From NCBI GenBank assembly GCA_050260455.1, contig JBLNCF010000012.1:58236-122235 (forward strand): a stretch of 64,000 nt of DNA, written 5' to 3'. Positions 14,826 through 64,000 of the stretch are shown piece by piece (positions within the stretch are counted from its first letter, which is position 1; every line of letters starts with the position of its first letter). The notes below the pieces were generated by a model that worked only from the letters and a program-made list of their open reading frames with translations, ran no database searches and had not been told where the DNA came from. A program made the translations under genes and the position numbers. This stretch comes from Bacillota bacterium (GTDB lineage: Bacteria > Patescibacteriota > Minisyncoccia > Phycocordibacterales > Phycocordibacteraceae).

Positions 14826-15080
14826 ATGAATAGTACCTATTCCGGCGCCTCCCGGCGCTTTAGACAAGTCCGCGACGCTCAACGAGGGCCGCACCGAGGA
14901 GCTCTTTCGGCTCCCGATCGGCTTGAAGAAGAGTTCGCTGTCGGCGATGTGGTCGAAGTAAAGTTGACCAAACTTAAGACGAAAGTACGCGTAAAAACAG
15001 CGTGGAAAGATTATGAAGTTGAAGGGGTTACCGGATACTATTCGGCACGACAGCTTCGATTGATACAAAAAGCCCGCTAG
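14826..15080 (+). CDS. small hypothetical protein
   Basis: 84-aa ORF; hairpin plus U-tract terminator immediately downstream supports expression. Confidence 0.35.
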   Translation: MNSTYSGASRRFRQVRDAQRGPHRGALSAPDRLEEEFAVGDVVEVKLTKLKTKVRVKTAWKDYEVEGVTGYYSARQLRLIQKAR

Positions 15081-57783: not shown

Positions 57784-58176
57784 TTATCGCTCGGGCATTT
57801 CTATGGTTACCGCATGCTTGCCCAGATCGAGCGTGACGGGTTCGGGAGTATCGATGCTGATCTCCTGAGCCTTTGTGGGCGCCTCGATGGTTACGGGTGG
57901 GGGAGCGTCAGTCGATTTCTTTCCAGCTGTAGGATGCTCACCGTGGATCGTATCGGTAGCTTCTGCTGGGTTGCTGTGCGCTTTTTGTGGAATACCATCG
58001 GCATCAAATGCTCCTGCTGCGCCGAGTGCTGCCACACCGGCGGCAGCACCAATTCCTACGCCCATAGCGATTCGATCCTTAGTCTTCCTTTCGCGTTCCT
58101 CCCGCTCCATCCTTTCTTCGATGGTTTCCTCGGGAGCCTTGTTCTGCTTTGGTTTAAAGAATTTATCGAGACCCAT
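57784..58176 (-). CDS. hypothetical protein with Gly/Ala zipper
   Basis: 130-aa ORF. Confidence 0.35.
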   Translation of the reverse strand: MGLDKFFKPKQNKAPEETIEERMEREERERKTKDRIAMGVGIGAAAGVAALGAAGAFDADGIPQKAHSNPAEATDTIHGEHPTAGKKSTDAPPPVTIEAPTKAQEISIDTPEPVTLDLGKHAVTIEMPER

Positions 58177-58324
58177 ATATAGTGACTAGTGGTATGTCTT
58201 AATCGTAGCCGGTAGAAACACGCTCGTGCCGGCTGTGTGGGGATAAAAGAAGACCCCCGGGAACGCTTGTGGCGAACCCGGGGGCACAGTGCGGCGTCCT
58301 TATTCTGCGTGGGTCACAGAGGGG

Positions 58325-58750
58325 CTAGGACGCCGTGAGCAGTCGCGGTATGCGGACGTTGCCGAAGACCAGCATTGCGCCGGTGACCGCCATGAAGCCG
58401 ATCGTGATGGCCGCGTAGAGCTGGATGAAGCCCGACACGTCACCGGCCGAAGCTGCGAGCATCAGAGCGCCGAACAGGAGTCCTGCGAAGGCAGCGATGA
58501 ACAGCAGCGAGTCCAGGGCGTCGTAGAGGATCTCCTTGCGGGCGAAGTAGGCGATGACGCCGTTTGCGAGCCCTGCGAACAGGGTAACGACTCCGAGGGT
58601 AGCGGCGTGTTGGCCGATGTCACCGGAATCCGTGAGCGCGTTCCAGCGGAAGATGCAGCCGATGGCTGCCGCCAGGAACGCCGCACCGAGCAGGAGCCCG
58701 ATCACGACGATGAACGCGCGACGACGCGAAGAAAGCGAAGAAAAGGGCAT
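58325..58750 (-). CDS. hypothetical 4-TM membrane protein
   Basis: Downstream hairpin CCCCCGGG...CCCGGGGG plus U-tract on the minus strand. Confidence 0.4.
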   Translation of the reverse strand: MPFSSLSSRRRAFIVVIGLLLGAAFLAAAIGCIFRWNALTDSGDIGQHAATLGVVTLFAGLANGVIAYFARKEILYDALDSLLFIAAFAGLLFGALMLAASAGDVSGFIQLYAAITIGFMAVTGAMLVFGNVRIPRLLTAS

Positions 58751-58853
58751 GGTTTATCTCCCAGTTGCCAATACAAGATTAACCGAAGCGAACTACAGTA
58801 TTGCACATAGGCTACATATTGTCAAGTACTTTAAGAACAGCTTGCTGCCCGGA

Positions 58854-58882
58854 TTGACGCTGAAAATCGGCATTCATATACT
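58854..58882 (+). promoter_or_regulatory. sigma70-type promoter TTGACG-N17-TATACT for groES-groEL
   Basis: Near-consensus -35 and -10; about 80-nt leader; no CIRCE (TTAGCACTC-N9-GAGTGCTAA) seen. Confidence 0.55.
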
Positions 58883-58968
58883 GGGGATAACCGGCGCGGC
58901 CCCGCTGCGCCGAATTCGGGTCAGTTTTATTAAGGTGTATTAACCGCATCGAGCGAATTTATTTCCCT

Positions 58969-60914
<1,946 letters not shown>

Positions 60915-60933
60915 CCGACAGGTAAACGAACGG

Positions 60934-60957
60934 GCCCCGCTTGTGGCGGGGCTTTTT
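60934..60957. terminator. Rho-independent terminator after groEL
   Basis: GCCCCGC-ttgtg-GCGGGGC then TTTTT. Confidence 0.7.
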
Positions 60958-60959
60958 CG

Positions 60960-61088
60960 TTAGTTCATCTCCTTGTCGTAGGTTCCGGAGAACCAAAGGC
61001 CAACAAAACCGGCCGCAGCGACCACGATAACCACAGTAAAGGCAACGCAGGCTGCAGCAATTGGGTGTGCTTGTATCCAGGCTTCCAT
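60960..61088 (-). CDS. small single-TM protein, 42 aa (tandem family member 1)
   Basis: MEAWIQAHPIAAACVAFTVVIVVAAAGFVGLWFSGTYDKEMN; GGAGGG RBS; start context ACACCACATGG shared with member 4. Confidence 0.5.
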   Translation of the reverse strand: MEAWIQAHPIAAACVAFTVVIVVAAAGFVGLWFSGTYDKEMN

Positions 61089-61103
61089 GTGGTGTTCCCT
61101 CCA

Positions 61104-61256
61104 TCAGAAATCGCCTTGGGCCATTTCCTCCTCTTCTTGGTAGAGTGCAGCTTCGCGTTTGAGTGCGGCGCCGAGCAGAGTAGCGCACGCAGCAACAAGA
61201 GCAATCGTTGGTCCGGCCCATTGATGGACCGAGATCCATATAAAGAGTCTTTCCAT
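61104..61256 (-). CDS. small single-TM protein, 50 aa (tandem family member 2)
   Basis: MERLFIWISVHQWAGPTIALVAACATLLGAALKREAALYQEEEEMAQGDF; GGAGGTG RBS 4 nt upstream. Confidence 0.45.
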   Translation of the reverse strand: MERLFIWISVHQWAGPTIALVAACATLLGAALKREAALYQEEEEMAQGDF

Positions 61257-61345
61257 AACTCACCTCCTGTGGGGAACCATAGCGCAGGGGAGATGCACTC
61301 GCAATGTCGGAAAGCCGTAGTCGAGGACTACGGCTTTCTCTCTGG

Positions 61346-61468
61346 CTAGGGTGCGTCCGTCGTGGAGTAGAAGGACCGCCACAGTTCAAACGGAAGGGTG
61401 TAGCACGAGAGCCAGAAGCTGGTCACCATCTTGGGAGAAGGTGGCGGCAACAGGAGCCAAGTGAACAT
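61346..61468 (-). CDS. small hydrophobic protein, 40 aa (tandem family member 3, divergent)
   Basis: MFTWLLLPPPSPKMVTSFWLSCYTLPFELWRSFYSTTDAP; AGGAGGT RBS; hairpin plus UUUCC after the stop. Confidence 0.35.
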   Translation of the reverse strand: MFTWLLLPPPSPKMVTSFWLSCYTLPFELWRSFYSTTDAP

Positions 61469-61573
61469 GGAGCACCTCCTGCATCTAGTATGACGCGCTG
61501 AAGCAGGTGAATTGAGAGGTGAGGGGATAAGGCAAGGGCTCTGCGGCATTATGTCCGCAGAGCCCGTGCGCCG

Positions 61574-61714
61574 TCACGCGCGTCGCTTGGCTTCCTCGTC
61601 ATCATCCGAACCTTGGAATGATCCCCACAGGGTGGAGATGGCCGGCAGCAGGATAATCACGATGCCAAGAGCGAGCACGATCTGAACGCGATGAGTAGCG
61701 ATCCAGGTGCCCAT
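61574..61714 (-). CDS. small single-TM protein, 46 aa (tandem family member 4)
   Basis: MGTWIATHRVQIVLALGIVIILLPAISTLWGSFQGSDDDEEAKRRA; AGGGAGG RBS; strong hairpin GGGCTCTGCGG...CCGCAGAGCCC after the stop. Confidence 0.5.
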   Translation of the reverse strand: MGTWIATHRVQIVLALGIVIILLPAISTLWGSFQGSDDDEEAKRRA

Positions 61715-61787
61715 GTGGTGTCCTCCCTGGGGCTGACCATACTCCCCGGTCCCGCTTCACGCAATCTTTGGAGGTATTCAGCGACTC

Positions 61788-61817
61788 TGTATAATGACAA
61801 GCGATTCTTATAATCGC
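61788..61817 (+). promoter_or_regulatory. extended -10 TGTATAAT followed by perfect palindrome GCGATTCTTATAATCGC, 9 nt before the lemA ATG
   Basis: Palindrome sits between the -10 and the start codon, an operator-like position. Confidence 0.4.
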
Positions 61818-61825
61818 TCACTTGT

Positions 61826-62386
61826 ATGACTATCCTCTATATCATCATTGCCGCCGTCATCGTGGTGCTTGTCTGGGTGGTGGCCGCGTTCAATGGCTTC
61901 GTATCTAAGGTAAACCGCACGAAGGAAGCGTGGGCAGATATTGATGTGCAGCTGAAGCGCCGCTACGATCTCATCCCTAACCTTGTCGAAACGGTAAAGG
62001 GCTATGCTGCACACGAATCGCAGGCGTTTGAGAACGTTACGAAGGCACGTGCTGCAGCCATGGGTGCTACGGGTGCCGCACAGAAGGCCGAGGCGGAGAA
62101 TGCGCTCACGGGCACGCTCAAGTCACTCTTTGCGGTCGCAGAGGCATACCCCCAGCTGAAGGCGAACGAGAATTTCCTTCAGCTTCAGAAGGAGCTCGGT
62201 GATACCGAGGATAAAATCCAGGCAGCACGCCGCTTCTACAACAGCAACGTGCAGGATCTTAATACGTCCATCCAGTCGTTCCCTGGCAACCTCATTGCCA
62301 ACATGTTCGGGTTTAAAGCGATGGATCTATTCCAGCTCGGGGTAGGTGAAGAGGCTGCACGCGAGCCAGTAAAAGTGTCATTCTAA
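61826..62386 (+). CDS. lemA: LemA family protein
   Basis: N-terminal TM plus NGFVSKVNRTKEAWADIDVQLKRRYDLIPNLV. Confidence 0.85.
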   Translation: MTILYIIIAAVIVVLVWVVAAFNGFVSKVNRTKEAWADIDVQLKRRYDLIPNLVETVKGYAAHESQAFENVTKARAAAMGATGAAQKAEAENALTGTLKSLFAVAEAYPQLKANENFLQLQKELGDTEDKIQAARRFYNSNVQDLNTSIQSFPGNLIANMFGFKAMDLFQLGVGEEAAREPVKVSF

Positions 62387-62431
62387 GGAGTCTTCAGCGT
62401 CTCCTTAGAAAGGAACGCTTACTCTTGTTTC

Positions 62432-63328
62432 ATGGCTACTCTCTACCAGGAACGCTCAAGTAATGTCTGGCGCACCGCTATCTTGATGGCGGTGTTCCTC
62501 GCGTTTGTTATCGGCATCGGGTATGCCGTTGCCTGGTACTACAACTCACCGACCATTCTCTATGCCGCGATCATCTTTGCGGTGGGCATGAACTTCTATA
62601 GCTATTGGTTCAGCGACAAGCAGGTGCTCTCGATGACGACCGCACGGCCTGCGTCGCGTGAAGAGTTCTTCGACTTCTACACGGTTGCAGAGAACATGGC
62701 GATAACATCTGGCATCCCGATGCCCAAGCTATATGTCATTGAGGATCCCGCACCGAATGCGTTTGCGACCGGCCGAGATGAAAAGCATGCGGTGGTGTGC
62801 GCTACCACCGGACTCCTTGCCATGATGACGCGCCCAGAACTTGAGGGTGTGATCGCACATGAGATGTCGCACATCAAGAACCGCGACATCCTCGTGATGA
62901 CGGTCGCAGTGGTACTCGCGGGCTTCCTTGCTATCGTCGCCGACATCTTCCTGCGCATGTCGTTCTGGGGCGGTCGCGATCGCGATCGAGAGGGTGGAGG
63001 ACTTCTTATGGTCCTCGCCATCGTCGGCATCATTCTCGCGCCTATCGCTGCGCAGCTCATCCAGCTCGCCATCTCTCGCCGCCGCGAATACCTTGCAGAC
63101 GCCTCCGGCGCGCTCCTCACACGCTATCCGGAGGGTCTCGCTTCAGCGCTCGCCAAGATTGGCAACTACCCGGCTCCCATGGAGCATGCAAGTCATGCGA
63201 CCGCACATCTTTTCATCGGAGATCCGTTTAAGGCAGAGGAGAAATCGAATTGGATCAATAATCTTTTTTCGACCCATCCTCCTATCAAGGATCGCATCCA
63301 GCAGCTCCTCCATCCGGACGGCAAATAA
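62432..63328 (+). CDS. htpX: HtpX-like M48 zinc metalloprotease
   Basis: HEMSHIKNRD zinc motif, 4 TMs; the usual lemA-htpX pair. Confidence 0.85.
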   Translation: MATLYQERSSNVWRTAILMAVFLAFVIGIGYAVAWYYNSPTILYAAIIFAVGMNFYSYWFSDKQVLSMTTARPASREEFFDFYTVAENMAITSGIPMPKLYVIEDPAPNAFATGRDEKHAVVCATTGLLAMMTRPELEGVIAHEMSHIKNRDILVMTVAVVLAGFLAIVADIFLRMSFWGGRDRDREGGGLLMVLAIVGIILAPIAAQLIQLAISRRREYLADASGALLTRYPEGLASALAKIGNYPAPMEHASHATAHLFIGDPFKAEEKSNWINNLFSTHPPIKDRIQQLLHPDGK

Positions 63329-63357
63329 CGGAAGAGTGTGCTATAACAGCTCCTAAC

Positions 63358-63447
63358 GGAGGCGTCGCATAGTGGTCTAGTGCGCCCGCTTGGAAAGCGG
63401 GTAAGGGGTAAAACCCTTCGAGAGTTCGAATCTCTCCGCCTCCGCCA
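63358..63447 (+). tRNA. tRNA-Ser (anticodon GGA) with encoded CCA
   Basis: Acceptor GGAGGCG/CGCCTCC, anticodon stem CCCGC/GCGGG with loop TTGGAAA, long variable arm, T-arm GAGAG-TTCGAAT-CTCTC, then G-CCA. Confidence 0.7.
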
Positions 63448-63498
63448 CATTCGGGGATAGTTGATTGCACTCATAACAGCCCGTGTCATAGTTTGGGC

Positions 63499-64000
63499 AT
63501 GAAAACCTATAAATACCTGGGCATCATCACGGTGCTCTACGTCGCGTTCCAGCTCGTTTCCGACGTCACTGCCGGAAAGATCGTGCAACTCGGTATTTTC
63601 ACCGTATCGGTGACAGCGTTGTATTTCCCGTTCACGTATATCTTCGCTGACGTGCTGACGGAGGTATATGGGTATGCGAAAGCGCGAAGCGTGGTGTGGC
63701 AGGTCCTGTTCGCTTCAGTGCTCGCCGGTCTCATCTACCAACTCGTGATATGGCTTCCACCTGCCAGTGGTTTCGATGCGAACGATGCCTATGTTCGCGT
63801 ACTAGGTTCGGTACCCCGCATCCTTCTCGGCGGGTGGGTCGCGGTGTGGGTCGGCGGCATCCTGAACGACTACATCATGGCTAAGATGAAGGTTCTGACA
63901 AAGGGCAAATATCTTTGGACCCGCACCATCGGTTCCACTATTGTAGGAGAGTTCGCAAACACCGCGCTCTTCTACTCCATCGCTTTGTATGCTGTTCTGC
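63499..64000 (+). CDS. yhhQ: queuosine precursor transporter (YhhQ/DUF165 family), 3' end outside window
   Basis: MKTYKYLGIITVLYVAFQLVSDVTAGKIVQLGIFTVSVTALYFPFTYIFADVLTEVYGY. Confidence 0.75.
   Translation, partial: MKTYKYLGIITVLYVAFQLVSDVTAGKIVQLGIFTVSVTALYFPFTYIFADVLTEVYGYAKARSVVWQVLFASVLAGLIYQLVIWLPPASGFDANDAYVRVLGSVPRILLGGWVAVWVGGILNDYIMAKMKVLTKGKYLWTRTIGSTIVGEFANTALFYSIALYAVL

Follow-up and report, generated by a model that had tools for sequence, protein, structure and literature searches.

We analyzed a gap between groEL (59277-60914, + strand) and lemA (61826-62386, + strand) in a 64,000-nucleotide stretch of bacterial DNA (contig JBLNCF010000012.1, positions 58,236 to 122,235; hereafter the window), where the further neighbors are groES, htpX, and a tRNA-Ser gene. 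Four short, ATG-started open reading frames (ORFs), here termed M1, M2, M3, and M4, lie in this gap on the minus strand (Table 1). Judged by codon usage, by similarity to syntenic relatives, and by the purifying selection seen in one relative, M1, M3, and M4 are genuine genes, and sequence comparison places them as a tandem paralogous set in a very narrow, previously undescribed, lineage-restricted family of small membrane proteins; their host is an uncultured bacterium of the Parcubacteria type. M2 falls outside this family, having no transmembrane segment, and from its sequence the odds that it is a gene are about even.

Table 1. Coordinates of predicted genes, start signals, hairpins, and candidate control elements in the groEL-lemA gap
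Feature	Position	Strand	Description
M1	61574-61714	-	46 aa, gene for predicted single-pass membrane protein, MGTWIATHRVQIVLALGIVIILLPAISTLWGSFQGSDDDEEAKRRA; NCBI locus tag ACM3TU_02740
M2	61346-61468	-	40-aa ORF, MFTWLLLPPPSPKMVTSFWLSCYTLPFELWRSFYSTTDAP; non-membrane, coding status uncertain
M3	61104-61256	-	50 aa, gene for predicted membrane protein, MERLFIWISVHQWAGPTIALVAACATLLGAALKREAALYQEEEEMAQGDF; NCBI locus tag ACM3TU_02735
M4	60960-61088	-	42 aa, gene for predicted single-pass membrane protein, MEAWIQAHPIAAACVAFTVVIVVAAAGFVGLWFSGTYDKEMN; NCBI locus tag ACM3TU_02730
Shine-Dalgarno of M1	61722-61726	-	GGAGG, 7 nt 5' of ATG
Shine-Dalgarno of M2	61475-61479	-	GGAGG, 6 nt 5' of ATG
Shine-Dalgarno of M3	61263-61267	-	GGAGG
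Shine-Dalgarno of M4	61098-61102	-	GGAGG, starts one base past the M3 stop (TGA, 61104-61106), inside TGATGGAGG
Hairpin 3' of M1	61532-61569	-	GGGCTCTGCGG...CCGCAGAGCCC; U-poor tail; -32.7 kcal/mol, z -4.7
Hairpin between M2 and M3	61310-61338	both	Perfect 13 bp, GAAAGCCGTAGTC/GACTACGGCTTTC; U-rich tail on + strand only
Bidirectional terminator hairpin	60925-60961	both	Common to groEL (+, T-tract) and M3-M4 (-); -21.3 kcal/mol, z -3.6
Candidate M1 promoter	61764-61736	-	TTGCGT (61764-61759), 17-nt spacer, TATGGT (61741-61736)
Candidate M3-M4 promoter	61304-61276	-	TTGCGA (61304-61299), 17-nt spacer, TATGGT (61281-61276)
Divergent control region	61715-61825	both	111 nt separating the starts of M1 and lemA; holds lemA TATAAT boxes and candidate M1 promoter

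Start signals, coding potential, and protein features

The original prediction, made from this stretch of DNA alone, had described four unannotated minus-strand micro-ORFs, each with a strong ribosome-binding site of the GGAGG type. All four frames are present, and an exact GGAGG lies 6-9 nt 5' of the ATG in every one of them. The description as unannotated holds for M2, which is not called as a gene in any database, but not for M1, M3, and M4, which NCBI lists as hypothetical proteins. How unusual are these start signals? The window has a G+C content of 54.5% and contains 153 GGAGG motifs on both strands, compared with an expectation of about 126. A stricter start-site pattern, counted on both strands and consisting of GGAGG, 5-9 nt, an ATG, and an ORF of at least 40 codons, occurs 10 times in the window, and four of these occurrences fall inside the 755-nt array, where 0.036 would be expected (Poisson P = 6.5e-8). 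The Shine-Dalgarno motif is rare among the long genes of the window, and a TANNNT box lies 5-7 nt before the ATG in 19 of 62 long ORFs, most often at 6 nt; these boxes often read TAGAAT and occur without a Shine-Dalgarno sequence, for example at the gene starts 27386, 38065, 39946, and 46010. These patterns suggest a genome that makes heavy use of leaderless mRNAs, with Shine-Dalgarno-led genes as the exception, and since most genes are apparently leaderless, four perfect Shine-Dalgarno sites within 755 nt stand out.

Coding potential was scored by codon log-odds trained on 56 long genes of the window, a scale on which in-frame 45-codon pieces of true genes reach 0.31 +/- 0.18 and 190 other small ATG ORFs -0.25 +/- 0.25. 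M1 (0.336), M4 (0.246), and M3 (0.163) attain values matched by 0.5%, 2%, and 5% of the other small ORFs, respectively; the score of M2 is 0.006. The G+C content by codon position of the same three frames follows the pattern of genes, with the first position exceeding the second (genes, 0.60/0.43/0.59), and that of M2 is atypical (0.40/0.55/0.80). All overlapping alternative ORFs have negative codon scores. Among them, a 171-aa, TTG-started ORF (60874-61389, minus strand) that overlaps M2, M3, and M4 in another frame scores -0.46, is rich in R, S, P, and C, and was set aside as spurious, although an ORF track with a 60-aa cutoff would display it instead of the real small genes; a 94-aa ORF at 61065-61349 (+) was likewise rejected on its codon score.

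All four frames had been thought to encode single-transmembrane proteins, three of them with an N-terminal M-x-x-W-I-x-x-H motif. One hydrophobic helix each is predicted for M1, M3, and M4, with maxima of 2.58, 1.85, and 2.61 on the Kyte-Doolittle scale over 19 residues, but M2, with a maximum of 0.62, does not fit the description. The tails of M1, M3, and M4 carry net charges of -2, -5, and -1. The motif is exact in two ORFs (MGTWIATH and MEAWIQAH), and a third (MERLFIWISVH) has its W-I-x-x-H part displaced by three residues. For M4, an AlphaFold model computed with the family alignment predicts a short helix (residues 2-7), a kink at His8-Pro9, and a long helix spanning residues 9-41 (predicted local distance difference test score, 82).

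Products of this kind might conceivably be exported, as class II bacteriocins, pheromones, or small lipoproteins, and bacteriocin-like peptides were among the roles suggested originally. The small size is compatible with export, and the sequence V-A-A-C at residues 21-24 of M3 fits the lipobox pattern; M4 has AAAC, but M1 and two of the relatives described below (L073 and L060) contain no cysteine. A double-glycine (GG/GA) leader motif is absent from the peptides, no transporter, immunity, or modification gene lies nearby, the neighbors being groEL, lemA, and htpX, and, as membrane anchors do, the proteins carry a charged tail after their hydrophobic stretch. We therefore drop the bacteriocin suggestion and regard export in any of these forms as most improbable.

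A more radical possibility is that the frames arise by chance in a non-coding spacer whose GGAGG motifs and hairpins serve something else. M2 would fit such an account, given its codon score, atypical base composition, lack of a transmembrane segment, absence from gene calls, and single weak look-alike. This look-alike, L001_C, is a 40-aa called gene (P0009) in the groEL-lemA gap of the genome L001; M2 resembles it in having FW..CY at the same offset, in an alignment that is weak (p = 0.027 before multiple-testing correction). FW..CY is seen a third time in the L008 gap, where no start codon precedes it, probably by chance. On the positive side, M2 has a perfect Shine-Dalgarno sequence and an ATG. 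For M1, M3, and M4, chance is opposed by gene-like codon usage, by the clustering of start sites, by paralogy and syntenic relatives, and by a constraint in a relative that is confined to the called frame (see below). Furthermore, a search of Rfam with positions 58000-64000 at E up to 1 returned only the tRNA-Ser and one sub-threshold overlap on it, so that no Rfam family lies in the gap. As far as sequence analysis reaches, chance is refuted for these three frames, and as an explanation of the array we hold it to be very unlikely.

Paralogues, syntenic relatives, and the groEL-lemA spacer

M1 and M4 share nucleotide context around their starts, as had been noticed from the sequence, in the form of a 21-nt repeat with 86% identity (61075-61095 and 61701-61721). 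The recent duplication that had been read from this resemblance does not hold: the likeness of the DNA is restricted to the start region, and because the paralogues are only 14-26% identical to M4, the duplication is old. Evaluated against composition-preserving shuffles, the similarities become significant: within the array the z-scores are 5.7 (M1-M4), 3.5 (M1-M3), and 3.0 (M3-M4), and comparisons involving relatives in other genomes give 7.7 (M4-L073), 5.6 (M4-L060), and 4.5 (L073-L034).

Queried one at a time against 160 related loci with tblastn and phmmer, the peptides returned no significant match; the best non-self matches of M4 were small minus-strand ORFs in the groEL-lemA gaps of L073 and L060. 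A profile built from six sequences, M1, M3, and M4 together with three syntenic relatives from other Patescibacteria genomes (L073, L060, and L034), recovers only its own members in the 160 related loci and in a database of 5.8 billion proteins. A look-up of the exact M4 sequence, aimed at the contig of the window, returned no record. An exhaustive scan of 1.84 billion representatives yielded the same six and two further proteins, P0007 and P0008, which are repeat proteins and were discarded as spurious matches. The six known sequences come from four species, each of them sits in a groEL-lemA gap on the strand opposite both genes, and tryptophan forms the single invariant column of their alignment. 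The relatives are represented in the database by P0002 (L073), P0004 (L060-like), and P0006 (L034-like), all uncharacterized and unnamed. The original prediction did not recognize the family, and indeed no family model exists for it: Pfam (E up to 10) gave only sub-threshold chance matches (CbiN and VirC1) and NCBIfam no match for the peptides. A literature search found no description of an M-x-x-W family or of small proteins next to lemA-htpX.

Selection was assessed in relatives for which a slightly diverged copy is available from another sample. Between L060 and L161 there are 13 synonymous and 4 non-synonymous changes, corresponding to a ratio of non-synonymous to synonymous substitution rates (dN/dS) of 0.07 (Fisher p = 1e-6), with values of 2.6 and 1.4 in the other frames. 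For L034 and L162 the ratio is 0.36, and 4.3 and 1.3 in the other frames. The low dN/dS in the called frame of these relatives argues that the family is translated and constrained.

The closest relatives of the window's GroEL, LemA, and HtpX are found in metagenome-assembled genomes (MAGs) of Patescibacteria (Parcubacteria/Kaiserbacteria). GroEL is 89% identical to that of the Patescibacteria MAG L001 and 75-80% identical to those of many Parcubacteria, Kaiserbacteria, and Paceibacterota MAGs, and by these sequence relationships the NCBI label "Bacillota bacterium" (locus tags ACM3TU_027xx) is probably a taxonomic misassignment. A blastn search of the gap DNA against all loci, the closest genome L001 included, detected no similarity, and a LemA-anchored scan of metagenomes for closer relatives reached a best identity of 74%.

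What does the gap hold in other genomes? The order groES-groEL-lemA-htpX occurs in 34 of 80 GroEL-anchored genomes, with a groEL-lemA spacer of 62 to 2180 nt. In 32 loci with a spacer of 250-1300 nt, drawn from the GroEL-anchored genomes and from LemA-anchored metagenome loci, we counted Shine-Dalgarno-led, ATG-started transmembrane ORFs of 25-90 aa and found 11 on the strand opposite lemA and one on the other, where 0.18 would be expected (Poisson 1e-16; strand bias p = 0.006). Most of these ORFs have no detectable homology to the window family. Tryptophan stands at position 4 in seven of 15 gap ORFs, against a background of 1.1% (p = 1e-10), a recurrence that hints at a wider, fast-diverging group of ORFs occupying the slot.

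These counts bear on the idea that surface or host-interaction proteins specific to single lineages, and unrelated to groEL, lemA, or htpX, occupy the spacer as a variable slot, perhaps as young genes born from the divergent promoter region. Such a slot would account for the wide range of gap lengths, for the unrelated small membrane ORFs or 2-kb inserts (L004, L019, and L079) found in different lineages, for the four tandem small ORFs of L001 that lack DNA similarity to the window, and for the absence of small ORFs beside lemA or groEL where the two genes are apart. It sits less easily with a recognizable family persisting there in four species and under purifying selection in a relative, and the M-x-x-W recurrence among the gap ORFs speaks for diverging descendants of common ancestors and against genes being born again and again. 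We consider this possible but rather unlikely as the full explanation.

Several relatives fill the spacer in other ways. The four ORFs of L001 (7718-8371, minus strand; 38, 43, 49, and 40 aa) have overlapping stop and Shine-Dalgarno sequences (TAGGAGG, TAAAGGAG) and a hairpin before the last of them, whose Shine-Dalgarno and start context (GGAGGACTCCACATGGG) is almost identical to the one at M1 (GGAGGACACCACATGGG) despite the difference between the proteins. The spacers of L004 (7623-9803), L019 (3951-6071), and L079 (7620-9741) extend to about 2.1 kb and hold several minus-strand genes for membrane proteins and for proteins with N-terminal signal-peptide-like sequences, with L004 and L079 similar in layout. 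A second type of small membrane protein, of 73-81 aa, is encoded in the slot of L021 (7700-7945, minus strand) and L059 (7683-7904, minus strand); it has an acidic N-terminus, one transmembrane helix, and a charged tail (...LLDL.HR), and the pair shows weak similarity (BLASTP E = 0.003), located in the tail.

Transcription units and control elements

The stop codon of M3 and the GGAGG of M4 nearly abut within TGATGGAGG, and M3 and M4 are therefore read as a coupled pair. The candidate promoters of M1 and of M3-M4, recognized in the sequence by eye, share one layout, and the -10 box of M1 ranks at the 99.8th percentile of a genome-derived -10 matrix whose specificity is low. In the relatives, L073 (TTGACA-16-TATAAT) and L060 (TTGCAA-17-TATATT) are clean single-gene units, each with a Shine-Dalgarno site and an intrinsic terminator. 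Stable hairpins had been proposed to separate the genes of the array, and folding energies bear this out for both elements concerned. The stem 3' of M1 is a probable terminator or RNA-stabilizing element, and the hairpin between M2 and M3 reaches -22.3 kcal/mol on the minus strand (z -4.3) and -25.3 kcal/mol on the plus strand.

Hairpin-flanked units would also be expected if the array consisted of type I toxin-antitoxin modules, in which a plus-strand small RNA, either antisense or overlapping, restrains membrane toxins of the Fst/Ldr type, and which multiply, as is usual, into tandem copies. The small size of the products, the presence of one transmembrane helix and, after it, a charged or acidic tail, the intergenic tandem arrangement, and the fast evolution and narrow distribution of the family agree with this. 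On the plus strand, a -10-like box (TGG-TAGAGT, 61138-61146, with TAGAGT at 61141) is present, and an RNA of about 190 nt that runs antisense to the start of M3 could terminate at the hairpin at 61310-61338, which has a U-rich tail (TTTCTCTCT). However, -10-like boxes of equal score occur on both strands across the gap, and this antisense promoter does not rise above background. The 5' leaders predicted from the inferred promoter positions span a short stretch of about 15-45 nt, the predicted fold of the M1 mRNA leaves the GGAGG largely unpaired and not sequestered, and the M3-M4 transcript has no unusual degree of structure (z -1.6). Neither a Pfam toxin family at E up to 10 nor an Rfam antitoxin RNA was found in the region, and the relatives retain chromosomal position, strong promoters, and purifying selection across genomes that are 76-78% identical in GroEL. 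Taken together, we judge a toxin-antitoxin function unlikely.

Divergent spacers comparable in length to that between M1 and lemA are seen in L034/L162 (106-109 nt), L073 (125 nt), and L001 (111 nt). The sequence upstream of lemA (61786-61825, plus strand) contains two TATAAT boxes, at 61790 and 61809, of which the second sits inside a short inverted repeat, AAGCGAT-N7-ATCGCT, that may be an operator; lemA starts 11 nt past this second box. The groES gene has a conventional promoter (TTGACG-17-TATACT, 58853-58881, plus strand) with a leader of about 90 nt, unlike the leaderless majority. The CIRCE heat-shock operator is absent from the whole window; hence no link to HrcA can be claimed, and the tie of the array to a heat-shock regulon is one of position only. 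Directly 3' of htpX lies the tRNA-Ser (GGA) gene (63358-63447, plus strand), which several small spurious ORFs overlap. Elsewhere in the window, an 84-aa ORF that is not hydrophobic (14826-15080, plus strand) follows a GGAGG, a 5-nt spacer, and an ATG in an apparently intergenic stretch and may be a further small gene.

Proposed role and comparison with known systems

In conjunction, these analyses lead us to favor, with some confidence, a reading in which M1, M3, and M4 are independently expressed, paralogous single-pass membrane proteins of 42-50 residues and of the accessory or modulator type. In each protein, a short interfacial helix at the N-terminus, based on M-x-x-W-[IL]-x-x-H-(P), would lead into a single transmembrane helix and then into a short, mostly acidic tail. 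M1 would form a unit with its own sigma-70-type promoter (TTGCGT-17-TATGGT), its strong Shine-Dalgarno sequence, and a closing hairpin, and M3-M4 would be translationally coupled, transcribed from a near-identical promoter, and end at the terminator held in common with groEL. M2, as a different, non-membrane ORF of 40 residues, may or may not be translated. Within the membrane, the three proteins probably bind and modulate a larger membrane protein rather than act as catalysts, a role we infer because other bacterial proteins of like size and shape act in this way. The groEL-lemA spacer of this Parcubacteria subclade acts as a variable slot in which small membrane genes recur, and LemA-HtpX, encoded divergently 111 nt away, is the only partner candidate that the context offers.

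It is conceivable that the small proteins are dedicated membrane partners of LemA-HtpX, serving as adaptors, inhibitors, or decoy substrates and co-regulated through the 111-nt divergent region. The family gene mostly lies 106-125 nt from the lemA start in divergent orientation, and all six members are located between groEL and lemA-htpX. We nevertheless regard such a dedicated partnership as doubtful, and the weak link to LemA-HtpX also counts against the favored reading. Of 31 lemA loci without groEL nearby, none yielded a small membrane ORF upstream of lemA, and of 40 groEL loci without lemA, none yielded one downstream of groEL. As none occurs beside lemA alone or groEL alone, the feature marks one subclade and its spacer, not either neighbor; the association with groEL and lemA may simply be a marker of that subclade, and the link to LemA-HtpX is weak. 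The possible connection to envelope stress suggested originally rests on the neighborhood and is weakened by the same absence where the genes are not adjacent.

Other points also weigh against the favored reading. The case for expression and membrane location of M1, M3, and M4 is built from sequence, and their promoters were picked out by eye, with an unspecific matrix for the -10 box. The dN/dS values come from relatives and not from M1-M4, the closest genome, at 89% GroEL identity, having no similarity in gap DNA. With only six sequences from four species, function is not readable from co-occurrence. In addition, a transmembrane helix followed by an acidic tail is equally the shape of Fst-type toxins.

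What is the relevance of such a locus? A large share of bacterial proteomes consists of small single-pass membrane proteins, which are poorly charted, and for the Candidate Phyla Radiation (CPR) there is, to our knowledge, next to no information on them. The locus offers a clean case with comparative support: it has three paralogues, its chromosomal slot is conserved, and a relative shows purifying selection. Its genes are unusual in relying on perfect Shine-Dalgarno sequences in a genome of mostly leaderless-looking genes. If the proteins were partners of LemA-HtpX, they would open a first functional route to LemA, whose family is widespread and of unknown role, and give insight into how membrane protein quality control is tuned in a minimal-genome CPR bacterium; either as such partners or as type I toxins, they would be the first of their kind for this bacterial group. 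The outcome is a well-supported annotation of an orphan family, an ordinary kind of feature rather than a new kind of system.

Two groups of known proteins invite comparison. The Fst/Ldr toxins, such as Fst of Enterococcus faecalis plasmid pAD1, resemble the window proteins in being very small, with an N-terminal membrane helix and a short, charged or acidic, probably disordered tail, and their genes often occur as several tandem intergenic copies in hairpin-bounded units. Of the 33 residues of Fst itself, 4-26 form a membrane helix, and the C-terminus is disordered (PMC10730256). Unlike these toxins, the window genes have no Pfam toxin match, have short predicted leaders and an exposed ribosome-binding site, and belong to a family with a stable syntenic position under purifying selection.

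The second group comprises AcrZ, CydX, KdpF, MgtS, and MgrB, proteins of 30-50 residues with one transmembrane helix that are non-enzymatic and believed to bind a larger membrane protein; they constitute a functional class and not a homologous family, and CydX and KdpF are encoded in the operon of their partner. The window proteins have no sequence similarity to this class in Pfam or NCBIfam, and unlike the genes of CydX and KdpF, theirs are separate transcription units divergent from lemA-htpX. They share with the AcrZ/CydX/KdpF class, on the other hand, their size, their predicted single helix, and the lack of an enzymatic domain, and like its members they are hard to find by homology and easily missed in annotation.

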